A stretch of DNA of 62,542 nucleotides, filler included, from Sphacelaria rigidula (GCA_964200075.2; 6 parts of 6 records of this genome joined end to end with filler, not necessarily neighbours in it); one strand, 5' to 3'. Shown: positions 3,101-51,020, counted from the whole stretch's first letter. Numbers and translations: made by a program. The notes: generated by a model from the letters alone, not told the origin.

Positions 3101-3395
3101 AAGACAAAAGTAGGACGCATGTTGGAAACGAGGAAAAACAAGCGCTACGACGGAAAGTGGACGAGGAAGGATACCTGAAGATATAGGGGAGTTGAGAGAT
3201 GGGGGATAGGGGTAAAAACATATGTGCATGGCCCAATGGACTACGAAAAAAGTTGAAGATGCGAATCCGGGTGGGGAACCTAGACCTCCCAGGAGGTAGA
3301 ACCATCTATACCAGTAGTGGGGTGGAAGAAGAAGGAGATGCACAGAATTCCCCCTACGGCGGAGCAACAAAGAGTAGAACTCATATAATGGGACT
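140..3395 (+). mobile_element. Decayed non-LTR retrotransposon (LINE; APE endonuclease plus RT), with many stops and frameshifts
   Basis: APE-like remnant GD(V)FNAGVG near 413-438. RT N-terminus 'KYGGEG...IPKKWKGMMVVSLFNEGHKADPGNYIEMTLL' (1752-2051). RT core 'QGLAHGCALSPTLFKLCINDM...GLMFAHDF' (FADD equivalent) and 'YTYLGVEI' (2270-2630). Confidence 0.9.
1455..1743 (-). mobile_element. 5'-truncated LINE 3'-end fragment inserted antisense inside the LINE, with a 15-bp TSD
   Basis: Flanked by gaaaggcagcagggg (1455-1469) and gaaagtcagcagggg (1729-1743). Removing it restores the host reading NRKAAG-ADEMMNE. The insert is homologous to 20036-20268 and ends gcaacagatgagtacgcccccccc. Confidence 0.85.
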
Positions 3396-3779
3396 TGATG
3401 GGCAAATGTCCACAAACACCGATTTCGTCGATTTCCGCACTGTCGGCCCTCGCGCAAATGCTTCAGTTCCACCACCCGCGCCAACCCTCCCCGCGCCCCG
3501 CGCCCGGCCGCCACCAACAACACCTACTGCTCCCACGAGCAGCGTAGCACCGGCTCCCCCCAACAGTGCACCACGAGCTTGACAACACCCGCCACACGCA
3601 ATTATCACAACAAGCGCCGAGCTCGCTCTCCGGCGCGCACTACTTCGACAACGCCGCCCTCCGCGGCACCGTCAGTGCCCACCCTCTCTGATGATCCCGA
3701 TGTACATATCGACGTTGGCATCTCCGCCGCGTCGCCTGTTCCACCGCTTCCTGAGCCACCATGTCTGGTCGGCTCTCCG

Positions 3780-7861: not shown

Positions 7862-8345
7862 CGAATCATCTCATTCTCGTTCTGCACTCCAATCTATGCG
7901 TGTGCGCACATCAGTCCTGCACTGGTATGTGTGGACGCGGATAACCTAGATGTGTGATCAAGAGGAAAACCCACGCGTGAGGGTGTTCGGTGCACCGTTC
8001 TATCCCCGTTAGCATGTGTTTCGCGCATTCTCCTTCTCCTTTCTCCTTTCTCCTTTTCCCTCCTCCTTTCTTCATGCGCTTACGCGCATTCAGTCGTCTT
8101 CATCTACCGACTACCCTCGCTCGACCATTGCGGGGATAGAATATGTAAGACCTGGGATGTAGGAAGCGTGGATTTGCGATATTCACCAAGGTCAGGCCGC
8201 TTCCTTTCCGTATTTTCCCATGGACAGAAACCCCGCGCGGTACGCACGCACGCCAGTTTTCCTCCCGGGCTTGCCCCTTGCTTTAGCGAGTGTTTTCATT
8301 CCTTGGGTGTTTGGTTTCTGGCTTGTCTCTGCCTGCGTCTGTAAG

Positions 8346-8498
8346 GCCTCCTCGAAAGGAGAGCAAAACCGGCTACGGTTGCTCTGGCATGGGATGACCT
8401 ATCCCGACTTGATCGGGCAGTGCCCAGCCACCCCTCACTGCCGACGTATGAAAGATTTGCTACAGCACATGGTGGGGTGCACCGATGAGACGTGCCAG
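8346..8498 (+). CDS. Internal exon, TAZ-type zinc finger (first part)
   Basis: ag acceptor and gtgagt donor; 153 nt, phase 0. Reads 'QNRLRLLWHGMTYPDLIGQCPATPHCRRMKDLLQHMVGCTDETCQ', matching the zf-TAZ pattern of CBP/p300-like proteins. Confidence 0.75.
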
Positions 8499-8869
8499 GT
8501 GAGTATTGCATTCCACAGTACCAGGGCACACGGTTGTAGACGTAATGTCGTACTTACACCGCTTTAACTACTTTTCACGATGGGAATTTGTGGCGAAATT
8601 CCCCATCACCGTGCGTGCATGCGAGTCGAGGGTGTTTATCGGTTCCCCCTCTTCCGCCACCCCATGTTGCCGAGCTTCCGTTTTGAATATCCATTTGGAT
8701 GCTTGTTTGATGCATATGAGCCGTTCGCTTTGAGGTTTGTGCGTTATCTTCTCTGTTTGCGATGGCTGCTTTTCATACTCATCACTTTCTCGAAGGTGTT
8801 AAGCGGTCTACCATCGCTCGTTTTTGCGTCTTGGTGTGTTTCTCGCCCCTGCATCATTTGCCACTGCAG

Positions 8870-9517: not shown

Positions 9518-9995
9518 TGTTGGTGCGGCGTTGTTCTTTTGCGTTTGTTTACTTTCGGCTCGGTTCCGCTAGTCTGTGTTCGCTACTTTGCTTGTCTCAG
9601 GTTCGGCGTTCTTGTTCTCGTGTAATGCGTGAGAGGACCGCGTGCTTAGAGAACCGCATTGTAGTTTAAAACCCTTCAGGATCGGCCTTTTCCAGAACCA
9701 ATCGGGCCAGCCCTTGCAGGGACCACGCCCCTGACCCCAACCCCAACCCCAACACTAACCCCAACCCTAACCCTAACCATAGAGGTGTTTGAATTCTGAT
9801 GCGGTCCTCTAAGCACGCGGTCCTCTCACGCATTACACTGGTTCCTGACTCGCCGCTTCTGGTCTATTTGGTTTGGTCGAGTCGGGTTCGCATTTGGGCG
9901 GGAGGAAGGCCTCCTTGTTTGGCCTTTCCTGTGAACAAAAGCTCCGGCTTGACTTCGGGTCAGTCTGTGATTGCGACAGTGGGGGGAAAACAACA
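9518..9995 (+). mobile_element. Putative LTR (TGTTG...CAACA) followed by a PBS-like TGG motif; contains a MITE insertion
   Basis: Inverted termini tgttg (9518) and caaca (9991-9995), then aac-TGGTACTAGC. No partner LTR is visible in the contig. Confidence 0.35.
9619..9840. mobile_element. MITE with ~40-bp TIRs and internal CCCTAA/CCCCAA repeats
   Basis: TIR tgtaatgcgtgagaggaccgcgtgcttagag(a/g)accgcat at both ends; TSD gttct (9614-9618) and gttcc (9841-9845). Confidence 0.9.
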
Positions 9996-31820: not shown

Positions 31821-33110
31821 AACACGGTCCGCGTTTCGACCGCGTGTTAATACCAATACCCCCTTGCGTGTAATTGCCGCCCTCCTTGAAGTCGCTGGTC
31901 CGTTCGCGTGCTGTTTTACCGTTTCTGTACCACTTGTTTCCCACCCTAGCATACTCGATGAGAACGGCCTATGATCTCTCGTGATTCTGCAGAACTGCTG
32001 TGTTGTCTTGTGTTGAGTGAAGTACTCCGTACTCCATACGCCACGCAAGAATTGTCTTGTATTGAGTGTAGTACCTCGTACTCCATGTAATGGGGTCATG
32101 GTTTGAGCAGTTTTTTTTCAAGTTCTCGTTTTTTTTTCAAGTATTCCGAAAACAACCAGAGTGTTTTCTGTCACAGAAATCTAATGCCGAATCTGGATTA
32201 GCCTGAGACAACAACCAACTTGAAAATTGGAAAACGCGGCACGCGCTCTTGTTCGGGGGTACAAACACCGCTGAAGAGAACAACATTATTGTACGCATTG
32301 CACAATCAGTCGAAACAAATTGCGAACCATTACACATTAAAAAGTCACACAGTGCGCTCACAGTTCGTCGAGTCGCCGACTAATGCTGAACGCATCACTC
32401 TCGGTCAGCTCTTGGCACCCCGCCGTTGAAGGATACGGGTAACACAAGCACGACAACGGCGCCTCGGTCTCCAGTGCAATATGGTACGGGGGTGGAACAG
32501 GGTTTCACCAGATGAAGTCGAGCGTTGATAAGGGCAAGTCTACGATTAGCTCAAACTTGACCAATTCTCATGTGCGCGTTATGCCGGTAAAGATGTCGTG
32601 CGCTTATAGCTCCACGATAAGATCCTATTCGGGGATGTCAGGGGCTTCAGTTGCAAGCTAGTACAGAGAGCGTATGCAGTCCGGACGGGCATTTCAGAAC
32701 TTGAACTATTTCGGGTAATAATCAGCCATTGCTCGGAATCCAGAGTTTCAGATTTCTGCTGATTGATAATGCCAATAAAAGAATATACATGAGGCGCATC
32801 CCACGGCCAGGAGCGTTCATTCGAGCTGCTTCTTGCTTGCCTCGGCGCAGAACGTATTCCCGAACACCAGTCGATGAGTTGAATAAGATTTGCTACTCCT
32901 TGAGTTCTCACTCTCAATTGAAAGTCAGGCTCTCAATCTGACGAAGCCCCTGTTACCAGGACCTCATACACCTCACGAACTGCTTCGCATTAATAGAAAC
33001 GAGAACACCGAGTCGACCGATTGCCGTTTGCGTTATCAACATAAGCGAGTACACATCGACACACTCTCCCTTAATCTGAGCAATGACATCGGTGGGAAGA
33101 ATGGTGCCAT

Positions 33111-36100
33111 CTAATATGTATCGGACGTCCGAAGAGACGGACTAGATACCCCGAGCTCGAACTTCACGTTCGAGTCCTCCTTCGCCCCTTCAAAAGCTAC
33201 ATCATCACATGCGTCTGGGTCTCCAGGTACCACTTGCAGCGAATCACAGACACGTCCCGTTTTCCCACCACCACTGCTAATAGAGCCACCACGATCACGT
33301 TTGCTGCTCCAAACGCTTGAGCGGGCAGCCTGCTCGCGACACGCCCTCACCCTATCGCCATCGTGTGTAGGAGAAGGCGCTGCGCTCTCCACTTTCAATC
33401 CCGCTCCTGCTCCTGCTCTCAAAAGTGACTCACCCTCAGCCCTTGACATTGGGTATACTGAGAGCAAAAGTGAGCTCCCTGAAAGCAACGGCGTTCTCGC
33501 ACCCTGCCTAGAACCGACGCACATACTCTCGGGAAGATCAACATCGTTCACAACGGGGCCAAACAGTGCTGCGCGCTTGCGCTTCGCTCTTCGTACACTA
33601 GCAACGCTTGCTCCACCACCCTCCGCCGGGCTAATGTCGCCGGAGGCCTCTGCAGTGTTGGGTTCCGTGGTGTCGAACATCGCGGCTGTACCGTGCGCAC
33701 TGACATGCTGTGTGCAAAAGGTCGCTCCCTCAACATCATCCTTCTTGTCCCTTACATCCACCACTCCCGCCCTGGCATGCTTGGAACAGAACTCTGGCTT
33801 CGTGCTTCCCGCTACCCCATATGTCGGATGCGAGGAGCAGCCCTCGTAGCTGCACGGCATCTTCTTCAAATTCACAATTCCCGTCCTGGCATGCTCGGAA
33901 TAGAACTCCGCCTTCTTGCTCTCCGCCACACCATACGAGGGATGCGAGGAGCGGCCATCAGAGCCGCACTTCTTGTTCACCACATTCACCATTCCCGTCA
34001 TTGCATGGTTCAAACAGAACTTCGCCTTTTCCCCTCCCGCTTCCCCATACGACGGATGCGTGGAGCAGCCCTCGTGGCCGCATTTTTTGCGTACAACATT
34101 CACCATCCCCGTCCTGGCATGCTTTGAACAGAACTCTGGCTTCGTGCTTCCCGCTACCCCATATGTTGGATGCGTTGAGCAGCCCTCGTAGCTGCACATC
34201 TTTTTCAACATCACCATTCCCGTCGTGGCATGCTTGGAACAGAACTCCGCCTTCTTGCTTGCCGCAACCCCATACGACGGATGCGAGGAGCACCCATCAG
34301 AGCCGCACTTCTTGTTCAACACATTCACCATTTCCGTCATGGCATGCTTGGAGCAGAACTCTGCCTTTTTGCTTCCCGCCACACCATACGTCGGCTGCGT
34401 GGAGCAGCCCTCGTGGCCGCACTTCTTGTTCATCACATTCACCATTCCCGTCCTGGCATGCTTGGAACAGAACTCCGCATTCGTCGTTCCCGCTACCCCA
34501 TACGACGCCCGCGTGAAGCAGCCCTCGTAGCCGCACTTCCTGTTCTTCACATTCACCATTCCCGTCGTGGCATGCTTCGAGCAGAACTCGGCCTTCGTGC
34601 TTCCCGCAACCCCACAAGACGGATGCGAGGAGCAGCCCTTGTAACTGCACGGCCTTTTCCTCACATTCACCATTCCCGCCCTGGCATGCTTGGAGCAGAA
34701 CTCCGCCTTCGTGCTTCCCGCCACACCAAAGGATGGCACCTTGGAGCAGCCCTCGTAGCCGCACTTATTTTTCCCCACATTCACCATCCCATTCTCGGCA
34801 TGCTTGAAGCAGAACTTTGCTGTATTGCCTCCCGCCATAGCATAAGACGGATTCGAGGAACAGCCCTTGTAACTGCACAGCGTTTTCCTCACATTCATCA
34901 TTCCCTCCCTGGCATGCTTGGAGCAGAATTCCGCATTCGTGCTTCCCGCCACACCATACGTCGGCTGCGTGGAGCAGCCCTCGTGGCCGCACTTCTTGTT
35001 CATCACATTCACCATTCCCGTCCTGGCATGCTTGGAACAGAACTCCGCCTTCTTGCTTCCCGCCACACCAAAAGACGGCAATATGGAGCACCCCTGGTAG
35101 CCGCACTTCTTGCTCACCACATTCACCATTCCCGCCCTGGCATGCTTGAAACAGAATTCCGCCATCTTGCTTGCCGACACTGCATACTTTGCCCGGGTGA
35201 AGCAGCCCTCGTGGCCGCACCTCTTGTTCAACACATTCACCATTCCCGTCATGGCATGCTTGAAACAAAACTCCGCCTTCTTGCTTCCCGACACACCATA
35301 CGTCGGCTGGGTGGAGCAGCCCTCGTGGCCGCACTTCTTGTTTTTCACATCCGACATTCCCGTCTTAGCATGCTTGGAACAGAATTCCGCATTCGTCGTT
35401 CCCGCTACTCCATAAGACGGCCCCGTGAAGCAGCCCTCGTAGCCGCACTTCTTGTTCTTCACATTCAACATTCCCGTCGTGGCATGCTTGGAGCAAAACT
35501 CGGCCTTCGTGCTTCCCGCAACCCCATAAGACGGATGCGAGGAGCAGCCCTCGTAGCCGCAAATCTTGTTTATCACATTCACCATTCCCGCCCTGGCATG
35601 CTTGGAGCAGAACTCCGCCTTTGTGCTTCCCGCCACACCATAGTATGGCATCATGGAGCAGCCCTCGTAGCCGCACTTCCTTTTCCCTACATTCACCATC
35701 CCATTCTCGGCATGCTTGAAGCAGAACATTGCCGTATTGTCTCCCGCCTTAGCATAAGACGGATTCGAGGAACAGCCCTCGTAGCCGCACGTCTTGTTCA
35801 CCACGTTCACCATTTCCATCCTCGTATGCTTGGAGCAGAACTCCGCATTCGTGCTTCCCGCCACACCGAAGGATGGCACGGTGGAGCACCCCTGGTAGCC
35901 GCACTTCTTGTTCACCACATCAACCATTTCCGTCCTGAAATTCTTACAACAGAACTCCACCTTCTTGCCTCCCGCTGAAGCATACGACGACGTCGAGGAA
36001 CAGCCCTCGTAGCCGTACTCCTTGCTCTTCAGATCCATCAATCCCGCCCTGGCATGCTTGGGACAGCACTCCGCTCTCGCGCTTCCCGCCACACCATACG

Positions 36101-36269
36101 AGGGATGCGAGGAACAGCCCTCGTAGCTGCACTTGTTGTGCACCACACCCACCATTCCCACCCTGACATGCTTCGGGCAGAAGTCCGCCGTTGTGCTTCC
36201 CGCTACACCATGCGACGGCCTCTTCGCGCAGCCCTCGTCACTACACAGCCGTCTCTTTACATTCAACAT
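33111..36269 (-). CDS. EsV-1-7 domain tandem-repeat protein A (1052 aa; 22 C-x4-C-x16-C-x2-H repeats plus low-complexity tail)
   Basis: Uninterrupted ORF with consensus MVNVxxKKCGxEGCSxxPSYGVAGSKKAEFCSKHARxG, the EsV-1-7 Cys-rich repeat. Tail carries KRKR and a terminal VKFELGV. True 5' end uncertain. Confidence 0.93.
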   Translation of the reverse strand: MLNVKRRLCSDEGCAKRPSHGVAGSTTADFCPKHVRVGMVGVVHNKCSYEGCSSHPSYGVAGSARAECCPKHARAGLMDLKSKEYGYEGCSSTSSYASAGGKKVEFCCKNFRTEMVDVVNKKCGYQGCSTVPSFGVAGSTNAEFCSKHTRMEMVNVVNKTCGYEGCSSNPSYAKAGDNTAMFCFKHAENGMVNVGKRKCGYEGCSMMPYYGVAGSTKAEFCSKHARAGMVNVINKICGYEGCSSHPSYGVAGSTKAEFCSKHATTGMLNVKNKKCGYEGCFTGPSYGVAGTTNAEFCSKHAKTGMSDVKNKKCGHEGCSTQPTYGVSGSKKAEFCFKHAMTGMVNVLNKRCGHEGCFTRAKYAVSASKMAEFCFKHARAGMVNVVSKKCGYQGCSILPSFGVAGSKKAEFCSKHARTGMVNVMNKKCGHEGCSTQPTYGVAGSTNAEFCSKHAREGMMNVRKTLCSYKGCSSNPSYAMAGGNTAKFCFKHAENGMVNVGKNKCGYEGCSKVPSFGVAGSTKAEFCSKHARAGMVNVRKRPCSYKGCSSHPSCGVAGSTKAEFCSKHATTGMVNVKNRKCGYEGCFTRASYGVAGTTNAEFCSKHARTGMVNVMNKKCGHEGCSTQPTYGVAGSKKAEFCSKHAMTEMVNVLNKKCGSDGCSSHPSYGVAASKKAEFCSKHATTGMVMLKKMCSYEGCSTHPTYGVAGSTKPEFCSKHARTGMVNVVRKKCGHEGCSTHPSYGEAGGEKAKFCLNHAMTGMVNVVNKKCGSDGRSSHPSYGVAESKKAEFYSEHARTGIVNLKKMPCSYEGCSSHPTYGVAGSTKPEFCSKHARAGVVDVRDKKDDVEGATFCTQHVSAHGTAAMFDTTEPNTAEASGDISPAEGGGASVASVRRAKRKRAALFGPVVNDVDLPESMCVGSRQGARTPLLSGSSLLLSVYPMSRAEGESLLRAGAGAGLKVESAAPSPTHDGDRVRACREQAARSSVWSSKRDRGGSISSGGGKTGRVCDSLQVVPGDPDACDDVAFEGAKEDSNVKFELGVSSPSLRTSDTY

Positions 36270-36547
36270 GACGGCCCTGACGTGGTCGGGGCGAAACCCC
36301 GCCCTGTAGCCCTGAGAACCTTGAGATGGTGGGTTGGAGCAGCACTCGTTGATTCACTTATTCCCGCGACGTCTACCGTCAGCTTCTTCGGTGGCGCTGA
36401 TCCAAAGCCGTACTGCTCATCATAGCACAGATACGAAGACAACGGGAACATCTCGTGAGTCATAGGCGAAAACCAGTTGAAACGTTTTGAAGAACGAATG
36501 GCCGTGTTATGCTCCACATACTCCGTAGAGTACGCACCCACCACAGG

Positions 36548-36868
36548 CACCGTAGGTAAGGTACCATAACGAGCGTACCCCTGGTATTTACCGGGGCATC
36601 CCATACCGTGGTATGCGTCGGTAATGTTGGTGTGAGTTTGGAAATAACGGATTGGACGGTTCGGTAGGTATTGAAATCTCGAAATACCGTGGGATCATAG
36701 GCATCGCAGGTGTGACATTTGAAAATACCGGGCTTGGCGGGTACGGTTGGTACTGAAATATCGGAATACCGTGGTGTCGTAGGTATGGCATTTGGAAATA
36801 CCCAATTGGGTCGGTATCGGTAGGGTATGACATGTCCCAAATACCGGCACCGGTTACCTGCCTTACCC
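36548..36868. repeat. TACCG/CGGTA-rich element (MITE or transposon subterminal repeats)
   Basis: Dense (a)taccg and cggta(t) motifs in both orientations, between gene A and the hAT transposase. Confidence 0.55.
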
Positions 36869-37023
36869 TCTTAACCCAATTCAAAACTGTCCTCTGGCGG
36901 TGCGAAGCGTTTCAGGTCTGTGTGCAAGTTGGGCAGTCAAAGTTTTGATGTGCCCAATGTGGGAAGTCGCCCCCCATACGAACACAATGCACCCCGGACC
37001 TCAAAGCACAGCAGAACCTCATC

Positions 37024-40000
37024 ATGAGTGACACCAGTAGTGTAAATGTGATTGCGGGCAATGCCCAACCAGCTACATCAGCCTCATCACCTGTACCAGC
37101 ACCTGCCAGCGCAGGTGGGACGCAGCCGTCAATTTCTAGTGCAGACTCTAACTCTAACACCACACGACAGCCCATGATTGTAGATGTCAGCGGTGTTACC
37201 GCTGCACGGGAGAGCGATTACCTCGCGCTTTCGAAAAAGACTTATTCTACGACCACGCAAGAAGAGGTCATCGTTCCTGAAAACGTTAGAAAAGCAGTGG
37301 AGAGCTTCCTTGCGCCGCAAAACATGGAGATATCAGGTAACGTTAAGCAGGGCTTCATTTACTCGTGGGGTGCTTTTTGCATTGGTACCGTTGGCGCGCG
37401 AGGCATGGAGCCTCATTTCTACCGTCTCGCCTGCCCAGCGTGCCACGAGGACAAGGTCGTCATTCCCTGCAAGAACGGACAGAGACAGGAGCAACGTCAA
37501 CAAACATCTCAAGAGTGCCCACAAGCTCATACGCAAAGCTAGCGTCTCGCGACCCGAGAACGCTGCGAATGTGGAACAAGGCGCCGCACAGCTGACGAGC
37601 GCAGGACGCATCCTTGGTGTCGGAAGAAAACGATCGGTTACAGTGTGTTGCGTTTTCGTTTTCTTCCCATCTATCCTGTACGTCGGTGTATGCCGACAAT
37701 ACGTTTTTCCGTGTGATAGCCTACACTGTTGTCAAGCCGGGGTCACATGGGATGGAAAAAGCACGCGGGCTTCTTCCCCCTCCATTATCTGTAATGCCCC
37801 ACCTTCCTCCTACGGTGCTTGCCTTCCTTTTTATGTGAGAAGAGTCCGACCATCCCTTTCCTTGGTTTTGTGTACGATCCTATACATGGGTATAAGTAAA
37901 GGATGCAGTCAGTATACAGTCAGGACTGGCTTTGTGCAGTAGTACTACGTACCAATTCTGTGTCACTGACTCTTGACTGGCTGTACGATGTGTTGCTGTC
38001 ACAGTTTATGATACTATAGTCAGTCGTACACACCATTTATTGGGGCAAGTTCATGGACAGTAGTGGTTGACGCGTTCATGCTCGTGCTTTTAGCTTGCTT
38101 CCCTGGTCTCTCTTCAGTCTTGTGTGAGGACACTGATTGAACTACAGCGGACGCGGATGTTTGCAACAGGCTGATGTACCTGTATAATGGAAATAAATGA
38201 CGGTAAACAGTTACAGTGAAAATGAACAGACAGTACAGTACTTGTTTCGTCTGCGCTTGCGCCTGCTGATTCCCCTGTTACCATGGGATAGTTTTTATTC
38301 CTGTTATTTGTGTTTGATCCTATTTTAGCCCGTCCTGCTCCGACCGCGGGTCTGAGAGAGAGGGCTCATGTGCAGATGTGAGGATATGAGCATACTGCGT
38401 GTGAAGCTGCAGCACTGAAAAGGAACTATCGTCTGCTATACACACTACTTGCGTAAATGTGTGCAGTCTCGACGTGGATCCGTGGATGAAGCGCCGCAGT
38501 CGTGCTTATCGTACTGTCTACCCTGGTATGTCCGATGGCTGTCTTGCTCAAATCACTAGAGCTGCAGTACTTGCGTGTGCTAATCAAGAAGCTTTTGTCG
38601 TTGAACTTCACTGAGGATGCTGAGTGGCGCAGTCTACTGCAAGGATGTCGAAAGGCGTATTTCCCAACTCTCAGCGTGAAGCGCGTCAAGTACATCATCG
38701 TGGAGATGCACGAGGCTACGAAGCAGGTTTGTGTACAAGTAATTGAAAACACACAACACAGTACAACATGTAAATGCACCGTGGTGTTTGGTTCAAATGT
38801 TTGTTTTTCCGACACTCTCTCTTGTCACTGTTCGTGGAAGTACCGTACTCCACGGCTTTACACTACTGCCTGTTGCAGTTCGTCCTAGGGGGGGGTGCGA
38901 CTGCATCGGGGAGATGGCAGGATACGCCTGATTCGTTACAAGAGAGCGGCAGCTCCTTCCACTTCGGCCCACGGGCTGAATTGCTGCAATCGGCTGTTGA
39001 GAAATCATCAATCCCTTGGGCAAAAATGATACGCACGCATTTCACATCTGCTTTGTTTCTCGGGGTTTTTTTTTGCCGATCATCTTGGGACGTGGCAAAT
39101 AACGATTTCAAAAAAGGTCGTGAGGGGACGTAATTTGCACAGTGCGACATAGCAGTGCTCAGTGCTCATCGCCACTCCCTTACCGTGCATTCTGTGCTGC
39201 TCACAGAGAATATTGGACGGGCTGGAGGCCAAGATCGAGGTGACCGATCTGCCTATCTTGCACTTCACCGTTGATTCATGGACTTGCAAGGTGTCTTGGT
39301 GCAAGTACTTGGGCATCTTATGGGTGGACCGCATATTTTCCTTCCACCACGCACTACTGCCGTTGAGTTCGGTTCAGAGTTCCACACGTCGGACGAGCAC
39401 GAGTGTGACTCGTGGCACTCGCAATCGTTGGGCTGCTCGTTGGCCGTAAAAATGAACAGGGCGAGCACTCGAGTCATTGCTTGTTGTGGAAACAAACTAA
39501 TAAGGCGGGCACTCGAGTCATCGTCCGTTGTGGAATAAAGGTAATACGGCGAGCACTCGAGTCGTTGTTCATTGTGGGAAAAATCATACGGCGAACACTC
39601 GAGTTATCGCTCGTCGTGGAAAAAAAATCATAGGGTGAACGCTCGAGTCATTGCTTGTTGTCGAAAACATCACTAGGGCGAGCATTCGAGCCATTGCCCG
39701 TTGGGGAAAAAATGAATAGGGCGAGCACTCGATTCATCGATCCTTGTAATAAAAAGTACTGACTCTAGCACACGAGTCATCGCTCGTTGTAATATGAAGT
39801 AATGCCTCGAGCACACGAGTCATGCTCGTAATGTTCTCAAGAAATATCCACGAGTGCACTCGATTCGACGAGTAATGACTCGTCCGAGGCGTGCAAAGTT
39901 CGACGGTCGCAACTTTGCTCCGTCGAGCTATCGTGTTTTTATGAAGATCGTCGCCTGCTGTGTCGACTTGTATGCCTTCCTCCATTGAAAATCAACCACG

Positions 40001-41435
40001 ATCATGGTCAAAACGGAAGCAGCTCAATCGTTTTTATTTTCATGCCATCACACACAGATCAAGCTCTACTGTACTGACCTCGACGCGGTGGGCACTACCA
40101 AAGCCGCTAAGCTACTGTGGAAGATTTTCACGTCTACAGTACAAGATTTCGGCCTTAACGTGGGGGCTTCGCCTCGTGCACGACTGACAGCGGCTCCGAC
40201 GTCAAATCGATGTACGTGAATCACGCAGGCAGAGTTAGGATTGAGTGGGACTGGTGCATATCGCACATGGCCAATAAAGCATGCGAGCGCGGTTTCGGCA
40301 CGGCCGCAGACCCAGCCAAGTCGAAGAACCCGGCAGCACGCAAGTTGATGCAAAAGGTCATCAAGGTGGTACGGAGTCTCAACAAGTCTTCGACGTGGCG
40401 GGCGAAATTTGAGGACATTCATGTGACGCCACCTGATGTAATAGTGCACATTTTATTTTTCCCTTTCACCCGGCATATATTTTTTCTCGTGATTTTGTCA
40501 TGTCTTGTCCACTTTCAACAATGTTTTCAAGAGATTCGAGAGTAGGGTATACGATTGAGAGTGAGGGGCTGATATCCTTGAGGAAGACATCGGCGTGTAG
40601 CTGTAGCACACGCCAATGTTACAGGCAACGGAGCGCAAGCGAATGATAAAATTCACTCTCAATCAACGCCCTACTCTCCGTCTCACGAAAACCTCGTTTC
40701 TCATGTTTTGTGGTCGTACGTAATCTTTCATCATTTGCTCCGTGTTTTGTCTTCGTTTCACCCTTGAATATGTGTTTCGTCACATGAATTTTGCCGTAGT
40801 CTGTTTTGCGTATTGTTGCATTTTCTCGTGTCTTTTTCGTCTCTTCTTTCATCTCAGACACTTCCGTTTCACCTGGTTGTTGTATGAATTGATTTTTGCG
40901 AACTAACGTCTCGGGGTTGCGGGCGACGATAACCGCACAAGCGAAGGGTGCCATCGAGACGTGAACCAACGGATTTCGCCAAATTGTATGACGCTTTGGT
41001 GTACCTCTAGTCGTGGAATAGTCAAGGAAGGATGCCTCACTGCCTCACCGCTGACGTGCAGCACTGCTATCCCTCTACGACTCTGGATGATGTTGACGCT
41101 GAGAGATTCGGCTGCTTTTGACAGATGGAGGACTTGGGGATATTCCGGAAGGTCGTAAAGTACGCACCGCAGCGGTGGCTGAGTCTCAACAGGTCTCCGG
41201 GGTTATGGTCCGTCTGTGGCTCCAGCTTCGGAAGGTGTTTGCTCTCAAGGGCGAGGTCTTCCCCCTGAACCAGGGCAGCAACCGGGACGGCATCCTTCAG
41301 CTGTACACCAATATGGAACCCGCCGTGAACATCACGAGTGACGGGCAGCACGATAACGTTCCGATGACAGGAGAGATGCACATGGCGCTCAGCAAACTCC
41401 AGGCTACGACGCTTGCTTCAACCAAGCCCTTGAAG
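37024..41435 (+). mobile_element. hAT-superfamily transposase pseudogene with spliceosomal introns (exons about 37024-37630, 38520-38726, 39207-39360, 40058-40422, 41195-41435); 3' end off contig
   Basis: BED-like finger 'FYRLACPAC...IPCKNG/DRSNVNKHLKSAH' (frameshifted); 'LSLNFTEDAEWRSLL'; first catalytic Asp in 'HFTVDSWTCK...YLGI'; second Asp and CxxH in 'TTDSGSDVK...WDWCISH'; 'LQLYTNMEPAVNITSDGQ'. Several pieces have GT/AG boundaries. Confidence 0.85.
39374..39901. repeat. Insertion with ~43-45-bp tandem units (gggcgagcactcgagtcatt...) inside the hAT gene
   Basis: About 8 degenerate units containing ctcgag; loosely inverted ends cacgtcggacgag and ctcgtccgaggcgtg. Confidence 0.75.
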
Positions 41436-41662
41436 GTAGGTACACCATTTCTCTTTCGTTTCCGCTATGGTTGTAGCATGGCGACATGAACACATTTCAC
41501 GCCTCCACTTGAGTCAAGTGACTTTGGCGCAGCATCAACGACCACGCGGGCGCTCAGCACGCAACACTTTGGTACTCCCAATATTTCAACACTTGTTGCA
41601 AAAATAATGCTGGCAATGATACTGATACCAAGATCAACATAATCTTTGAATGTGCAAGGTAA

Positions 41663-41762
41663 NNNNNNNNNNNNNNNNNNNNNNNNNNNNNNNNNNNNNN
41701 NNNNNNTTAATTAATTAANNNNNNNNNNNNNNNNNNNNNNNNNNNNNNNNNNNNNNNNNNNN
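41663..41762. other. Artificial contig spacer
   Basis: N44-TTAATTAATTAA-N44. Confidence 0.97.
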
Positions 41763-42559
41763 CCCCCCCTCCCCAAGGTCGCCAAATATCAATCTGGGGC
41801 TGTAGGAGGGGGGGCAGGGAGTACCCTACTTGAGGAGGGGGGGTACCCCCTGATCGATGGATGGTGGCGATAGTAGTTGCTGTACTGCACCGAACATGCA
41901 TGTCGGCAGCATTCGCCTGCGCAAGGTATACCGAAACGGTAGATGGTACGGGTACGTCGAAGCAAGTAGAGAAGAACATGTCCGTAGAGACAAGGAGTGG
42001 CGAAGAAGCGAGGCGGCGAAAACGGTGATCTTTCCCGCACAACACCACCATTGGCAAATATGGCTTTGCAATTTGTTGGCAACGAATCAGCCGACACAGG
42101 CCAGAGCTGTACTGTCTGTACTGCCTGCATGTTGAATACAACTAAACAAGTACCGCTTTACGTAGATTCCCTCGGGAACTGCCACTACCTCAATGTTGGA
42201 TGTTCCTTTTGGCCACACCACGTCCTCTCCCTGTGTTGTGTCGCAGTTTAGTATGACGGCGACATGTAGATACACGCGTTGGATGAACACGGCTGTCTGT
42301 CCAAACGCGGGCAAAGTACCTGATCATGCGCCATTCACATCTCTTCCATGTCTACAATTTGATAATATTATATGTATTCTCACTCAAGACTTCGATTTGA
42401 GATGTCATAACCCCACAAACTCGCGAGTTCCTCCGCATCGAGAGAGCAAACCATCCGTACCAGCCATCTTCCGTTCGAGGAAGAGGGTTATGCAAGGTGG
42501 CGTTCAGCATACTCCCCGCGTAATCTAGACAAAATCAAGGCAACGAGCAGCATCATCCA

Positions 42560-45500
42560 TCATCTGTCGGACGCCACCCCTAGATCAAACTTCACGCTTG
42601 AACCCTCCGACGTCTCTACTGATTCCGCACCAACAAACCCGCCAACAGACCCACATACAACTGCCGGTGAGGCATATAGCCGTCCCGCATTCACACCACG
42701 ACTGCTGCTGCTGGAGCTACTTTTAGCACCTGCACTGCTCCAACCCCTCGAAGGGGCCGTATGCTTGCTACACTGTCCCATTCCAGCGCCACCGTGTGTA
42801 GGAGAAGGAGCTGCCACCTCTACCCTCACAGAAGACACCTCACGATCAGTCCCTGGAGGAAGCTGGCCCGAGAGCAACGGGGGTGTTACACCAATCCGCC
42901 TGGCAACAGGGTACACACTACGTCGAGTATCGACAACGTCGCTTGTGCCAGAACTCAAGCATGGTTCGCGCTTGCGTTTTGTTCCTCGCACGCCAGCAAC
43001 GCTTCCTTCACCACCCTCTGTTATGCTACGGGTCGAGGTGGCCTCCCCAGTGCTGAGCTCTCCCGTGTGGTACACTGTAGCTGCTTCATGCGCAGTGGGA
43101 CGCTGCCGGCACAATTTTGCCTCATCACGGTTGTCGTTCTCCAGAATTTCCAACTTCAAGCGTCCCTCTTTGCTAGACTTGTAGCTCACCACATTCACCA
43201 TTCCCGCCCTGGCATGCTGAGGGGAAAACCTCGCGTTCTTGCTTCCCGCCACACCATATGATGGCTTTTTCGAGCAGCCCTCACTGCAACACGTCTGGAA
43301 CCGCACGTTCACCATTCCACCCCTGGCATGCTGAGAGCAGAACTCCGCCTTCTTGCTTCCCGCCACTCCATACGACGGCTTTTTGGAGCACCCCTCGTCG
43401 CCGCATTGCTTTGACACCACATCCACCATCCCCGCCCTAGCATGCTTGGAGCAGAACTCCGCCTTCTTGCTTCCTGCTACACCATAAGATGGGCGCGTGG
43501 GGCAGCCCTGGTGGTCACATTTCTTGTACTCCACATTCACCATTCCCGCCCTGGCATGCTGAAAGCAGAACTCCGCCTTCTTGCTTCCTGCTACACCGTA
43601 CGATGGATGCTTGAGGCAGCTCTCGACGCTGCATTTCTTACTCACCACATTCACCATTCCAGCCCTGGAATGCTCCGAGCAGAAGTCCGCCTTCTTGCTT
43701 CCCGCCACTCCATACGACGGCTTCTTCGAGCAACCCTCGTCGCTGCATTTCTTTGTCTTCACATTCCCCATTCCCGCCCTGGCATGCCGAGAGCAGAACT
43801 CCGCCTTCTTGCTCCCCACTACACCATACGACGGCTGCCTGGAGCAGCCCTCGTCACCGCACTTCTTGCCCCATATATTCACCATTCCTGCCCTGGCATG
43901 CTTGAAGCAAAACTCCACCTTCTTGCTTCCTGACACACGATACGACGACGTCTTGGAGCAGCCCTCACTGCAACACGTCTGGAACCGCACGTTCACCATT
44001 CCAGCACTGGCATGCTGAGAGCAGAACTCCGCCTTCTTGCTTGCCGCTACACCATACGACGGGTTCTTCGAGCAACCCTCGTCGCTGCATTTCTTTGTCT
44101 TCACATTCACCATTCCCGCCCTGGCATGCCTGGAGCAGAACTCCGCCTTCCTGCTTCCCGCTAAACCAAAAGACGGCCTTCTGGAGCAGCCCTCGTCACC
44201 GCACTTCTTGCCCAAAACATTTACCATTCCTGCCCTGGCATGCTTGAAGCAAAACTCCACCTTGCGTCCTGACACACGATACGACGACGTCTCGGAGCAG
44301 CCCTCACTGCAACACGTCTGGAACCGCACGTTCACCATTCCAGCCCTGGCATGCTGAGAGCAGAACTCCGCCTTCTTGCTTGCCGCTACTCCATACGACG
44401 GCTTTTTGGAGCACCCCTCCTCGCCGCATTGCTTTGACACCACATCCACCATCCCCTCCCTGGCATGCTTCGAGCAGAACTCCGCCTTCCTGCTTCCTGC
44501 CACACCATACGACGGGTTCTTCGAGCAGTCCTCGTCGCCGCACGTCTGGTGCACAACATCCACCATTCCCGCCCTGGCATGCTGAGAGCAGAACTCCACC
44601 TTCTTGCTTCCCGCTAAACCAAAAGACGGCCTTCTGGAGCAGCCCTCGTCACCGCACTTCTTGCCCAATACGTTCACCATTCCCGCCCTGGCATGCTTCA
44701 AGCAAAACTCCGCCTTCTCGCTTCCCGCTACACCATACGATGGCCTTTTGCAGCAGCCCTCGTCGCCGCACTTCTTGCCCAAAACATTCACCATTCCCGC
44801 CCTGGCATGCTTCGAACAAGTCTCCGCCTTCTTGCTTCCCGCTACACCATACGATGGCGCCCTGGAGCAGCCCTCGTCGCCGCACCTTTTACCCAATACA
44901 CTCACCATTCCCGCCCTGGCATGCTTCAAGCAAAACTCCGCCTTCTTGCTCCCCGCTACACCATACGATGGCCTTTTGCAGCAGCCCTCGTCGTCGCACG
45001 TCTGGTGCACCACATCCACCATTCCCGCCCTGGCATGCTGAGAGCAGAACTCCGCCTGCTTGCTTCCCGCTACACCATACGACCGCTTTTTGGAGCAGCG
45101 CTCGCCACCGCATTTCTTGTTCACCACATTCACCATTCCCGACCTGACATGTTGAGAGCAGAACTCCGCCTTCTTGCTTCCCGCCACACCAAACGACGGC
45201 TTCTTGAAGCAGCCCTCGCCGCCGCATTTCTTGTTCAGCACATCCATCATTCCCGCCCTGGCATGCTTCGAGCAGAACTCCGCCTTCTTGCTTCCCGCCA
45301 CACCAAACGACGGCTTCTTCGAGCAGCCCTCGCCACCGCACGTCTTGTTCACCACATCGACCATTCCCGCCCTGGCATGCTGAGAGCAGAACTCCGCCTT
45401 CTTGCTTCCCGCCACACCAAACGACGGCCTCTTCGAGCAGCTCTCGTCGCCGCACGTTTTGTTCACCACATCCACCATCCCCGCCCTGGCATGCTGAGAG

Positions 45501-45592
45501 CAGAACTCCGCCTTCTTGCTTCCCGCCATATCAAACGACGGCCTCTTCGAGCAGCACTGTTGTATGCACTCTCTCCTCGCCACGCTGGCCAT
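42560..45592 (-). CDS. EsV-1-7 domain tandem-repeat protein B (about 1010 aa from the first ATG; 21 repeats plus 1 degenerate unit plus tail)
   Basis: Uninterrupted ORF with the same 38-aa CCCH repeat; tail homologous to protein A (KRKR, AAPSPTH, VKFDLGV). The ORF-track start at 45655 is GTG; the first ATG is at 45592 and an upstream exon is possible. Confidence 0.93.
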   Translation of the reverse strand: MASVARRECIQQCCSKRPSFDMAGSKKAEFCSQHARAGMVDVVNKTCGDESCSKRPSFGVAGSKKAEFCSQHARAGMVDVVNKTCGGEGCSKKPSFGVAGSKKAEFCSKHARAGMMDVLNKKCGGEGCFKKPSFGVAGSKKAEFCSQHVRSGMVNVVNKKCGGERCSKKRSYGVAGSKQAEFCSQHARAGMVDVVHQTCDDEGCCKRPSYGVAGSKKAEFCLKHARAGMVSVLGKRCGDEGCSRAPSYGVAGSKKAETCSKHARAGMVNVLGKKCGDEGCCKRPSYGVAGSEKAEFCLKHARAGMVNVLGKKCGDEGCSRRPSFGLAGSKKVEFCSQHARAGMVDVVHQTCGDEDCSKNPSYGVAGSRKAEFCSKHAREGMVDVVSKQCGEEGCSKKPSYGVAASKKAEFCSQHARAGMVNVRFQTCCSEGCSETSSYRVSGRKVEFCFKHARAGMVNVLGKKCGDEGCSRRPSFGLAGSRKAEFCSRHARAGMVNVKTKKCSDEGCSKNPSYGVAASKKAEFCSQHASAGMVNVRFQTCCSEGCSKTSSYRVSGSKKVEFCFKHARAGMVNIWGKKCGDEGCSRQPSYGVVGSKKAEFCSRHARAGMGNVKTKKCSDEGCSKKPSYGVAGSKKADFCSEHSRAGMVNVVSKKCSVESCLKHPSYGVAGSKKAEFCFQHARAGMVNVEYKKCDHQGCPTRPSYGVAGSKKAEFCSKHARAGMVDVVSKQCGDEGCSKKPSYGVAGSKKAEFCSQHARGGMVNVRFQTCCSEGCSKKPSYGVAGSKNARFSPQHARAGMVNVVSYKSSKEGRLKLEILENDNRDEAKLCRQRPTAHEAATVYHTGELSTGEATSTRSITEGGEGSVAGVRGTKRKREPCLSSGTSDVVDTRRSVYPVARRIGVTPPLLSGQLPPGTDREVSSVRVEVAAPSPTHGGAGMGQCSKHTAPSRGWSSAGAKSSSSSSSRGVNAGRLYASPAVVCGSVGGFVGAESVETSEGSSVKFDLGVASDR

Positions 45593-48009
45593 TTGCTCTG
45601 TCGCGTGATTTTTGTTGAGGAGTGACTGCCCGCTGTAACACAATTGGCATAACACCGGAGGGTTCTGATGTCAGCTCACCAGACAGCGTTGAAAGAAACA
45701 CCATCGTCGCACATGAACGGGAAGGGCAGGAGCTACCCGAACTTACTGAAATCACACTATACATGAACGTGACTAACACCCTAGTGCACAAGGTAATCCA
45801 AGCGAATGGGACTTCCTCACCAATACGGCAATATGGATCTGAAGCATATACAGCATAGATGGAGTATAAGAGGCAAATGAAAGCAGAAACTCTTGAGCGC
45901 ATAATACCAAGTCGTGGTTCACCGGGCGTGATGATACATGCAGTATCATACAATTCAGGGCCTGTAGAACACCTGCCAAACCTTTTATAAAGCTGCTCTA
46001 CACTGGCAGAATACCTGACAACGTTGGAGGAGATCATATATAGATACCTACAAGTACGGGAAAATCGTGCTGACCTCAAAGATGCGTGACCAGGTTCCGA
46101 ACTACTGGCCTGGTTTGGTCCTGTTCCATTTCACTGCTAGGAATATAAATTGATGAGGGATGACTTTTGTTCTCACAGCGGCACACGCGACCGTGGAAAG
46201 CAAATGAAATCAATATTCATGCCGAACCTGGTATGTGCACACGCGCAGAACGGTTTACATATCTGCCGGATCTCAATACACGGCACATGTGCTCTCATGC
46301 ATAGATGTCTTCATCCCTTTTGCCTTATCGGGTACCGTCGGAAACAAATGTAGTGTATTGCTATGGCTTCCACTTCAACCACAAGTGAGTTCATATGTCG
46401 AGTTACCTGATGTTTGCATTAGTCACTTGTACGTCATAATCTTCGGCTTGTATCGCGTATACATGGTGTGCATGGTAGTACATGCTTGTTGTCGCCAGGG
46501 TCAGAGTGTCACGTCAGGAAAGCGCTGGAAGTTGAGCGGAGCGAAACACTGTTGGGAGAAACATCGAGGCTTTCAGTACAGTGCATTGCACATCTGTTGG
46601 ATGAGCATATCACGACTGTACACGATTGGTGCAAACACTCTAGATGACGCCGACATGACGATAATAGTCACCGTAACGATCCTTCCCTTTACAGTCCTTG
46701 CGGAAACCGGCAGACGCCTGAAAGGGTGAAGTTTCGAAACGCACTCATATCTGACCAGCGGTTGGGGAAACGTTTTCAACACCACCAGAATATCACCATT
46801 GTTAGACGTACCTTCAAGCGTGATAAGGAATCATCTCGCCTGTGTCAGACATACATCCTACGGTGAACACGTACTATTTTACCTGTCGTGAACACATGCG
46901 TTCTAAAATGAACACGCATCTATATATGACGCGCAGATAAATGCTGCATAAACGGGAGACGTACGTTAGTTGGGCACACACGTTTTGAAGGAAACAGGTA
47001 TTGCACACATGTGTGGCACATGTTCTTTCAAGTGAGATGTTTGATGTTCAGTACTGCCTAACGCGTGGGATACTGTGGTCGTCGTCGTTCGAGGTCAACT
47101 GTTAATGTTTGGTGAAAGTTGACGAAGAAAGTGCTTAAACGGATGGAAAGGGCCGCCGTTTATTCGCTGCTACTGTGACATCTGATACCATTTCATATTT
47201 CTGTGACATGTTGCTTGTCTTCCCAATCATCATAGCTACAATAAACGAATGTTCCATTACCCTTCAAGCACCCTTCAAGTGTGCACCAGGCACGCCATGT
47301 GCAAAGGCGGACATGGAACCTATGGGCAGTGCGCCTGCGCACGCTTGTCAATGGTCGGGTTCTCCCGTGAAAGACTCGCAAATCCAGACCCGCGATCAGG
47401 CAAAATACAACAGTTTACCCTCCATTTCGGTCATATGCGGTCCGGGGCAGCTGTGTCTTGAAAGCCGAAAAATTCCCACTAGCAGCACGGCCGGGTGTTT
47501 TAGGGTCTTGATTGAAGGGGGAACGGGGTTACGCATACTCCCGAGACACTACAGGCTGGGCCACCTAAGAAGCGGACTTTCTTTCAGCCGGTTCTGACTG
47601 ACAATATATCGCGAGTTATGCCTACTATGACACCTCGTGGTAATCTGCAAATCAACGCGCGTCTTTCACTTCACGTAGCACTGCGATCTGACAAATTACC
47701 ATCGAACGAAATACCAAACTGCAGTCAGCTGCGAAGTGAAGAGAGTTGAGGGTGGCATGTGCGGCGGAATAAGGGGGAAAAACGGCTGTAACCGCATTTA
47801 CGGTTACAGTCAGTTATGCCGCGGCCGCAAAGTGATGGTGCAGCACTAGTTGTGGTTGTACAACAAGGCAGGTCGTACTGTAGGCGCGCAGTGTCTGAGA
47901 TGGCACGCAAAGGAAACCTCCAGCGCGCCAAGGCGTCGCGCTTGTAGAAAACGTCCAAGTCCCGGCTGAGATTTTTGTACTCTAAAAGCATGTGAACCAG
48001 TTCTCGACA

Positions 48010-49644: not shown

Positions 49645-50140
49645 TCATGAGCTAGCTCACCTGCGGGCTGTAGCTCACTTGTAGTCAAACATGTACATGT
49701 GAGCTACGTCCGATAGCTCACCCTGGACATATAAGAGCTGATGAGCGACGAGTTGGCAGCTCGTCCAGGACAAACATGCGTAGCTCATACAGCTCTCATA
49801 GCTCACCCAGGACGAATATGAACTGATGAGCTACGGGTTGGCAGCTCGCCCAGGACAAACATGCGTAGCTTATACAGCTCCCATAGCTCACTCAGGACGA
49901 ATATGAGCTGATAAGCTACGGGTTGGTGGCTCACGTAGGATAAACATGTGTAGGTCATGTAGCTCTCGTAGCTTATCCCGGGCAAAGATGTGTAGCTTAC
50001 GCATCTTTCATAGCTCACTCAATAGCTCACCCGAGGCAAAGATGTGTAGCTCACGCAGCCCTCACAGCTCACCAGGGCAAAACATAAGCGGATGAGCTAA
50101 GCCCGGTAGCTCACCGTAGGGATACATGCTCGTAGCTCAC
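49645..50140. repeat. Degenerate ~85-bp tandem repeat rich in TAGCTCA/TGAGCT, block 1
   Basis: ccaggacaaacatgcgtagct recurs at 49765 and 49850. Confidence 0.85.
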
Positions 50141-50332
50141 TCACGTCATGTGCCTAGAGCGCCGCTGACCAACCCGTGTCGCTCATGATTTAACATTCTC
50201 GTTCGAACGAATGACATCACATATCACTAGGTTGTGGTACTTTGTCTTACTCTTCGCGATAGGAAGAAAAAAAGTCGACACATACCCTCGTTCATTTCCG
50301 ACTAGAGCGGCACTAGAGCTGCTGCCCCCCAT

Positions 50333-50333
<1 letters not shown>

Positions 50334-50370
<37 letters not shown>
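50334..50370. repeat. (GT)n microsatellite
   Basis: About 18 GT units. Confidence 0.95.
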
Positions 50371-50371
<1 letters not shown>

Positions 50372-50549
50372 TGGCTAAGATGCGGATGACTTGTGATGCA
50401 GCCATGTTGATGTTTACAAAAAGCAAATCAATCGCTATCCGAAACGGAACACAGGTGTGCGCACATCAAACCGTCGTCACGTACGTACAATACCAACGTG
50501 CATGAGCATCGGAACAGAACATCTCCAAGATCGAAGTAGATCCCGCAAC

Positions 50550-51020
50550 TCTTTAGCTCAGCCGAGGCAATCATGTGTAGCTCATGTAGCTTTCATAGCT
50601 CATCTAGGGCAAACATGTGCTGATGAGCTACGTCCGGTAGCTCACCCAGCGCACACATATATAGCTCATGCGTCTCTCATGGCTCATCGAGGGCAAGCAT
50701 GTGTAGTTCATGCAGCTCTCATAGCTCATCCAGGGTGAACATACGTAGCTCATGCAGCTCTCATAGCTCACCCAGGACGAATATGAGCTGATGAGCTACG
50801 GCTTGGTAGCTCACCGATAGCAAACGTGCGTAGCTCATACAGCTTCTATAGCTCACTAAGGAATAGAGTTAATGAGCTACGATTGGGTAGCTCACGTAGG
50901 GCAAACATGTGAAGCTCATATAGCTCTCGTAGCGTACCCAGGGAAAACATGCGTAGCTCATGTAGCTCTCATAGCTCTCTACGAAGCTACGCAGAATGGG
51001 AGCTAGCTCGAGCTACAGGG
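50550..51020. repeat. Degenerate ~85-bp tandem repeat, block 2
   Basis: Same unit as block 1, for example ctcatagctcacccaggacgaatatgagctgatgagctacg at about 50760-50800. Confidence 0.85.

Follow-up and report, generated by a model that had tools for sequence, protein, structure and literature searches.

Two long EsV-1-7 repeat arrays in the brown alga Sphacelaria rigidula as candidate nuclear, zinc-dependent DNA-binding proteins

We analysed a stretch of 62,542 nucleotides from the brown alga Sphacelaria rigidula (GCA_964200075.2), hereafter the window, which is made of six pieces of about 10.34 kb each with N spacers between them. Two genes, gene A on piece 4 and gene B on piece 5, are new and unusually long members of the known EsV-1-7 family, and carry 22 and 21 tandem EsV-1-7 units, respectively. 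The best-supported mechanism for their products is that of nuclear, zinc-dependent DNA-binding arrays, which we give about an even chance of being correct. A preliminary description of the same window, made from the sequence alone, had proposed a nucleic-acid-binding array in which every repeat contributes to a recognition code.

Both genes lie on the minus strand, and in each of them the array is coded in one exon after a short N-terminus. The coding sequence of gene A (33111-36269, stop codon at 33111-33113) is a single open frame of 1052 amino acids (aa). The coding sequence of gene B, taken from its first ATG (caaATGG), spans 42560-45592 and gives 1010 aa; its open frame extends further upstream to a GTG at 45655, so that the complete open reading frame (ORF) covers 42560-45655(-). 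The array of gene A (33741-36245) consists of 22 units of 38 aa each, with A18 at 37 aa, and that of gene B (43178-45568) of 21 units, with B12 at 37 aa. No EsV-1-7 units were found elsewhere in the window. The nucleotide sequences of A and B resemble each other in the arrays alone, by approximately 74-78%, and the two genes are therefore old paralogues. Two paralogues on different contigs had been claimed in the preliminary description, and this was borne out by the N spacers that separate pieces 4 and 5. In the favoured explanation, which as a whole has about an even chance of being right, A and B are paralogues of long standing that belong to the brown-algal host.

The repeat structure was found consistently by Pfam, by Tandem Repeats Finder and by cutting the arrays into units. 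Tandem Repeats Finder detected a period of 114 nucleotides at 33741-36218 in gene A (21.8 copies, 77% matches, score 2496) and at 43186-45555 in gene B (20.8 copies, 80% matches, score 2630). Pfam PF19114 (EsV_1_7_cys) matched 22 stretches of gene A (960.6 bits, E 6.6e-298) and 21 stretches of gene B (1028.2 bits, E 0), far above the gathering score of 25 bits. Additionally, a model of the array matched the predicted structure of EsV-1-7 itself (Q8QNQ2; Foldseek, BFVD) with an E of 3.3e-27 and 50% identity over 228 columns. The units follow each other head-to-tail without spacers, and the strict pattern C-x4-C-x15-17-C-x2-H fits 20 of the 22 units in A and 20 of the 21 in B, while the units that miss it are still in register. 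When the columns of a unit are numbered from its first Cys, two of the four ligand positions are lost in A03 (35904-36017; Y1 and N26) and in A21 (33855-33968; R6 and Y23), and B21 (43178-43291) has a Ser at the third ligand position (S23). The uninterrupted arrays of 21-22 units of 38 aa with the scaffold C-x4-C-x16-C-x2-H, and the assignment to the EsV-1-7 family, were thus correctly given in the preliminary description, and its series of di-residues before the conserved proline was exact in 22/22 units of A and 21/21 units of B. The arrays of A and B have net charges of +60 and +72 and isoelectric points of 9.2 and 9.4, respectively, and the net charge is positive in 42 of the 43 units, with B10 at 0.

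Behind the arrays both proteins have homologous, low-complexity C-terminal tails of 209 aa (gene A, 33114-33740; no Pfam family) and 205 aa (gene B, 42563-43177). The gene A tail contains the motifs RRAKRKR (33573-33593), LKVE (33387-33398) and a terminal VKFELGV (33147-33167), and the gene B tail TKRKR (42968-42982), VRVE (42818-42829) and a terminal VKFDLGV (42575-42595). The two tails align mutually and with four further proteins in VRGTKRKR, [LMI]KVE and a terminal NVK[FLI][ED]LGV, and the terminal motif was found by pattern in seven further proteins. Four of these tail-bearing relatives are Sphacelaria rigidula proteins, and the nearest named relatives of A and B also come from this species. 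The KRKR motif would be nuclear-localisation-like. Each tail also has two conserved psi-K-x-E-like motifs, with R in place of K in the VRVE of gene B; psi-K-x-E is the sumoylation consensus, and these motifs may be sumoylation sites.

An exhaustive representative search for relatives gave 6475 clusters at E ≤ 1e-3, and therefore the EsV-1-7 family is large; 1019 of the clusters were found at E ≤ 1e-30. A preprint on the family (10.1101/2024.02.19.579948) gives up to 335 genes per genome, often clustered, and a possible new class of zinc finger, and the family is described as virus-linked. A sample of 176 relatives was composed of the 150 best-scoring proteins of the representative search and the first 37 homologues, which overlap. 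In this sample a protein has at most 16 CCCH motifs, compared with 20-22 in A and B under the same loose pattern. The full-length products of A and B are both missing from the public protein collection, so that gene annotations may under-represent long EsV-1-7 arrays. For the two loci the one exact match found among public proteins is a 289-aa fragment of B, P0040 (42563-43429), which corresponds to the last 289 codons.

Many of the first 37 homologues end in a common domain (R-P-D ... E-x-D-E-x-Q-H ... R-M ... I-R-Y-N-P-D), in which D449, D464, E465, R479, R496 and N498 are invariant in an alignment of 21 proteins. With the fusion pattern defined as [RKH]P[DK]...E-x-D-E...H / ...R-[FYWI]-N located C-terminal to the last unit, 100 of the 176 sampled relatives contain it, making this the commonest architecture among them. 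One such relative, P0015, was modelled with a predicted local distance difference test (pLDDT) score of 77.4. With VIA-align 2, an in-house structural aligner, its residues 411-557 matched best to the homing endonuclease I-Bth0305I (3r3p_B; Z 8.9, root-mean-square deviation 3.1, 95/98 residues) and Vsr (1cw0_A; Z 8.8, 113/155 residues). PD-(D/E)XK nucleases headed the Foldseek list for the same protein, with a best E of 0.013 and none at E ≤ 0.001. In this model the C-terminal domain of P0015 looks like the Vsr/I-Bth0305I nuclease fold. EsV-1-7 arrays were also seen in the gene models P0013, P0029, P0024 and P0031 together with helicase-associated (HA) domains plus a nuclease-like domain, a retrotransposon gag domain, ETF domains and EF-hands; some of these gene models may be merged. 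An N-terminal EsV-1-7 domain is moreover described for the Ectocarpus Tc1/mariner transposase TcMar-2_Ec32, at the place where transposases usually carry their DNA-binding domain (PMC12477816). This transposase has the domain joined to a catalytic part, while A and B are long arrays without a catalytic domain.

Next, the array was modelled with AlphaFold2 using units B02-B09 (304 aa, alignment of 33 rows). The mean pLDDT of this 8-unit model was 85.3 and its predicted template modelling (pTM) score 0.42. Each unit was predicted to form a pair of strands of three residues each, at columns 12-14 and 31-33 (an offset of 19 residues), and some units a three-residue helical turn at C23-x2-H26; the model contains no helix of at least four residues and no beta-beta-alpha unit. 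Among predicted viral structures 29 matches were found at E ≤ 0.001, including EsV-1-7 itself, and four of the 29 had been named 'Endonuclease' by their depositors. The ESM Atlas gave no usable match.

To describe how the units differ from one another we used the 43 units of genes A and B only, for variability as well as for selection. The most variable columns of the pooled units are 9 (3.0 bits), 36 (2.8), 35 (2.6), 3 (2.4), 8 (2.2) and 38 (2.0), followed by 29 and 18. The preliminary description had placed the variation in two patches, namely the di-residue before the proline and the four residues before the first Cys (columns 8, 9 and 35-38). Five of the six most variable columns do fall there, but the patch columns together account for just 30% of the summed column entropy in A and 35% in B, and the top two columns for 13% and 16%, respectively. 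Columns 3, 29, 18, 28 and 24-25, outside the patches, vary too. The variation is thus enriched in the patch columns and far from confined to them. Columns 35-38, 2-3 and 8-9 are contiguous across the unit boundary and lie on either side of the first zinc knuckle, C1-x4-C6; when the column values are summed, the stretch of 13 columns that runs from 35 to 9 accounts for about half of the entropy. The within-array variability profiles of relatives, 12 of the eukaryote type and 8 of the nuclease type, were correlated with those of A and B (Spearman 0.54-0.68). The hot columns of A and B are the generally free columns of the EsV-1-7 family, nuclease-linked arrays included (Spearman 0.54-0.64).

Selection was assessed on an IQ-TREE tree of the units, with changes counted by parsimony in a method like single-likelihood ancestor counting (SLAC). 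The tree had 153 synonymous and 309 nonsynonymous changes, and a global ratio of nonsynonymous to synonymous rates (dN/dS) of 0.55. The ratio was 1.15 for columns 8-9 and 0.98 for columns 35-38; it was 1.10 for the six hottest columns and 0.42 for the other 31, so that the scaffold of the unit is under purifying selection (approximately 0.4 outside the hot columns). Column 9, with 25 nonsynonymous and 0 synonymous changes, was the sole column to reach nominal significance (P 0.018), and this signal would be lost on correction for 38 columns. In 12 reciprocal-best unit pairs, taken as young duplicates, pN/pS was 0.48 overall, 0.67 in the patches (9 synonymous, 27 nonsynonymous) and 0.40 elsewhere (35 synonymous, 50 nonsynonymous). 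The nonsynonymous rate per site in these pairs was 2.7 times higher in the patches (0.153 vs 0.056 elsewhere), and nonsynonymous changes struck 32 of the 38 columns; the difference in the nonsynonymous to synonymous ratio between patches and rest was not significant (Fisher P 0.10). The pattern in the patch columns fits relaxed constraint and does not demonstrate diversifying selection. The diversifying selection confined to the patches that had been anticipated for a recognition code was therefore not what the 43 units of A and B gave, with ratios of about 1 in the patches (0.67 in young pairs) and 0.40-0.42 elsewhere.

Within gene A, the units of A05-A09 (35220-35789) correspond one to one, as mutual best matches, with those of A13-A17 (34308-34877) at 89.5-93% nucleotide identity, giving a duplicated block over 34308-35789(-). 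In gene B a similar relation, again with 89.5-93% pairwise identity, was found between B11-B13 and B14-B16 (43748-44428(-)), and B11 and B20 are 96.5% identical. Based on these blocks of pairwise-best units we conclude that the arrays grew by block duplication. We also compared units that have the same label, i.e. the same di-residue or the same four residues (tetrad), using a scaffold likeness that was calculated without the hot columns. Same-label units were closer in scaffold for the di-residues of A (0.835 vs 0.794, P 0.026), the di-residues of B (0.872 vs 0.846, P 0.02) and the tetrads of B (0.896 vs 0.848, P 2e-4), and for the tetrads of A, with just 3 same-label pairs, the effect was not significant (P 0.29). 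Since units with the same label are also closer in scaffold, recurring labels largely reflect shared descent and not the re-use of an alphabet.

A and B are real genes and not decaying repeats, as their frames of 3.0-3.2 kb are open and dN/dS is 0.55 (0.48 in young pairs). In the mechanism that we favour, a nuclear DNA-binding array, each intact 38-aa module would hold one zinc ion via C1, C6, C23 and H26, and the basic string of modules would act as a multivalent binder stretched out on nucleic acid, with double-stranded DNA as the most likely kind. The freest residues are those on either side of the first zinc knuckle (columns 35-38, 2-3 and 8-9), and these would be the likeliest to tune what is bound. 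The tail may recruit or regulate partners in the nucleus. The arrays grew as blocks of three to at least five units were duplicated. That A and B bind zinc and DNA, reside in the nucleus or have any specificity is inferred only. DNA as the ligand is suggested, by association only, by the relatives in which EsV-1-7 units are joined to a nuclease-like domain or to a transposase. From the preliminary description the idea of a Lys/Arg-rich, probably zinc-dependent nucleic-acid-binding array is supported by the charge and by these fusions.

A number of observations weigh against DNA binding by A and B. Ligand residues are lost in the three units A03, A21 and B21. The tails of A and B contain neither the nuclease motif nor another known domain, according to Pfam and motif inspection. 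The nuclease-like and transposase fusions occur in distant relatives with approximately 30-40% identity, and the array there might serve a role other than one on DNA. The nuclease match of P0015 is barely over the caution line of Z 8, and 3 of 998 chains had a Z of at least 8, the third being an unrelated mitoribosomal protein (8.1). A profile of the 21 nuclease-fused relatives gave only three chance-level rows against the PDB sequences (E 1.5-1.9) and no solved nuclease, and in Pfam the C-terminal domain of the relatives matched only DUF2726 and Hjc, below threshold. For the 8-unit model Foldseek listed 49 PDB matches with E ≤ 10, none of which reached E ≤ 0.001. When 48,161 chains representing the PDB were searched widely with VIA-align 2, two had a Z of at least 2 (highest 2.4), and 0 of 48 of Foldseek's own matches held when re-checked with the same aligner. 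The array, as represented by the 8-unit model only, is predicted to be without a solved structural neighbour. IMMEDIATE UPRIGHT (IMM), the sole genetically studied member of the family, is called a protein of unknown function in the accessible literature. No binding assay, structure or code for EsV-1-7 was found in the accessible parts of the literature on the family; this agrees with the preliminary description, according to which no biochemical function had been demonstrated.

Instead of nucleic acid, the zinc modules might bind proteins, like LIM, RING and PHD domains do, and form a protein-protein scaffold that makes no direct contact with nucleic acid. The structural likenesses of the 8-unit model would agree with this, since its top VIA-align 2 matches are RING domains (Z 2.4 for 2yhn_A over 47 residues, and 2.2) and its best Foldseek matches in the PDB are other zinc modules (PZP/PHD, LIM and the nsp13 zinc-binding domain, E 1.5-10), and nucleic-acid binding is reported for no family member in the accessible EsV-1-7 literature. 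However, these matches are weak and all below the useful threshold, and the strong, uniform positive charge together with the recurrent nuclease-like and transposase fusions fits DNA better, so that a scaffold of this kind is unlikely, with a modest chance of being correct. RNA binding, as known from many CCCH fingers, has a small chance: the arrays are rich in Lys and use CCCH ligands, but RNA-binding zf-CCCH fingers have the spacing C-x7-8-C-x5-C-x3-H instead of the x4/x16/x2 found here. No zf-CCCH match was detected by Pfam in A and B, and the fusion partners found, a nuclease-like domain of the Vsr/homing type and a DNA transposase, have DNA as their substrate. A non-functional or selfish origin, either by runaway tandem duplication in a repeat-rich genome or as integrated giant-virus genes, was considered as well. 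High-copy repeats on both sides of gene A, the three degenerate units, the described link of the family to viruses and the lack of both full-length products in the public protein collection would be in line with it. Nevertheless, both 3-kb frames are intact with dN/dS of 0.42-0.55, the non-repeat tail is conserved among paralogues, and the 18 other ORFs of at least 110 aa on pieces 4 and 5 gave no Pfam match and no giant-virus marker. The nucleotide similarity of A and B is confined to the arrays, so that they are also old copies that were kept, and we assign to such an origin a very small probability.

The layout likened in the preliminary description to transcription activator-like effectors (TALEs) and zinc fingers, with a code per repeat, was not supported by our tests of variability, selection and descent. 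According to it, a unit would read one or a few bases via the di-residue before the proline and the four residues before the first Cys, and the order of the units would spell the target. The location of five of the six most variable columns in the patches, the uncorrected excess of nonsynonymous changes in column 9, the 2.7-fold nonsynonymous rate in the patches of young duplicates and the contiguity of the patches around the first zinc knuckle are all compatible with a code, and the nuclease-like domain to which related arrays are joined would have to be aimed. Against it stand the small share of the patches in the column entropy (30-35%, with 13-16% in the top two columns), their dN/dS of 0.98-1.15 on the tree and 0.67 in young pairs (Fisher P 0.10), and the failure of the column 9 signal after correction. 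Labels that recur by descent, nonsynonymous changes that reach 32 of 38 columns in young pairs and hot columns that are the free columns of the whole family speak against it too. The TALE arrays of Xanthomonas resemble A and B in being long and uninterrupted, with approximately 20 units of similar length in one exon and with some columns far more variable than others. TALE repeats, however, have 33-35 aa and two helices per repeat, and their variable di-residue is uncoupled from the scaffold. The units of A and B are zinc-ligand modules of 38 aa that were modelled as short strands and loops without helices of at least four residues; their variability is graded and not limited to two residues, their labels are coupled to the descent of the scaffold, and there is no sequence relation to TALEs. 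A code of this type therefore has little probability, which we consider to be as small as that of RNA binding.

Among known systems A and B belong with the EsV-1-7 family (PF19114 / IPR043822), which includes EsV-1 gene 7, Ectocarpus IMM and the brown-algal family. They have the same tandem 38-aa unit with C-x4-C-x16-C-x2-H and a brown-algal host lineage, and differ by their 21-22 units and by the conserved tail that is common to a small Sphacelaria subfamily. Macaisne et al. 2017 are said to have reported five repeats in IMM. Homologous arrays of approximately 7-16 units with the same free columns occur in the giant-virus fusions to a nuclease like Vsr/I-Bth0305I ('EDxHD'). In contrast to these, A and B have no PD-(D/E)XK domain and no E-x-D-E-x-x-H motif but low-complexity tails with KRKR and psi-K-x-E, and they are of host type, without viral neighbours on pieces 4 and 5. 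Families of C2H2 poly-zinc-finger proteins, e.g. the KRAB zinc-finger proteins (KZFPs), are similar by way of a working analogy, as they are lineage-expanded, basic tandem zinc modules with unit duplication and an effector region outside the fingers. The ligand pattern and spacing of A and B are different from the C-x2-4-C-x12-H-x3-5-H motif of classical C2H2 fingers, with no zf-C2H2 (Pfam, E ≤ 0.01) or KRAB match. Positive selection at contact residues is known for KZFPs, whereas the unit-tree and young-pair tests did not demonstrate it for A and B. As an analogy, a lineage-expanded poly-zinc-finger family would be closer to A and B than TALE.

Sequencing runs were used to look for transcript hints around gene A. 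Nine runs from three studies match this stretch, none of them recorded as RNA; for four runs of one study, X3 and X6 among them, the RNA kind is a guess only, and runs X1 and X9 are DNA-type. Contigs of X3 and X6 cover 32824/32825-33790/33791 and 35766-36414, and beyond 36414 they continue with 201 and 151 unlike letters, while the X1 and X9 contigs run on to 36578. The break coincides with a cag| 3'-splice-like site (36413-36415) after a pyrimidine-rich tract on the gene strand, and is a weak hint of a 3' splice site of an intron in the 5' untranslated region (UTR). By the same weak hint, 36270-36414(-) may be the 5' UTR and 32824-33110(-) the 3' UTR of gene A. X3 and X6 have no cover at 32402-32803 and over most of 37025-38000, while X1 and X9 cover 30/30 bins, and this was not counted as evidence. 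In each of X1, X3, X6 and X9 a contig joins 34588 to 36191, leaving out 1602 bases and putting 6 letters in their place, an in-frame difference of exactly 14 units. With sides of at most 29 letters, this join may be a shorter allele, a paralogue or an assembly-graph artefact. Inside gene A these runs differ from the window in ten places, with 5 synonymous changes and 5 that are nonsynonymous, which is too few to conclude from.

Gene A is flanked by two stretches (32000-32400 and 36422-37024) with a summed contig depth of 4.8e4-1.6e5 in the DNA-type runs, compared with approximately 65 nearby, and no Pfam match; these are probably high-copy dispersed repeats. Tandem repeats with unlike consensus units were found 3-5 kb upstream of gene A (39448-39823, 43-bp units) and of gene B (49713-50977, 42/84-bp). 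Long open frames of up to 582 aa on the opposite strand or in other frames of the arrays (e.g. 34230-35978(+) and 44693-45625(+)) look like by-products of the periodic codon pattern and not like genes. Of the 90 other ORFs of at least 110 aa in the window only three had Pfam matches, to a reverse transcriptase, an integrase zinc domain and a TAZ finger, all on piece 1, and no giant-virus marker was found among the 90 by Pfam. At 2271-4291, 8163-8564 and 9729-9778, piece 1 has retroelement remnants (RVT_1 with E 2.4e-6, below the gathering score, and Integrase_H2C2 with E 1.5e-10), an ORF with the TAZ zinc finger (E 1.5e-6) and a short CCCTAA-like repeat.

A broader proposal, which is distinctly unlikely with a rather small chance of being right, is that EsV-1-7 arrays are an unrecognised natural scaffold for reading DNA. 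Giant viruses would aim Vsr-type homing nucleases with short arrays, and brown algae would have expanded the module into a KZFP-like nuclear family that reads the genome. A and B, with 21-22 units, would then be its longest readers. Every unit would touch a few base pairs with the residues near its first zinc knuckle, and long targets, possibly derived from repeats or viruses, would be recognised.

The EsV-1-7 family is among the largest gene-family expansions in brown algae, and includes the developmental regulator IMM. If the domain does not read DNA, A and B are simply two large members of a known family. As the longest arrays among the sampled relatives, strongly basic, coded in a single exon and provided with a conserved tail, they are convenient for initial tests of the structure of the domain and of its zinc and DNA binding. 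Reading of DNA by the domain, if real, would account for its occurrence next to a nuclease-like domain and in a transposase, and would give a handle on how brown algae regulate their genes or police their repeats.

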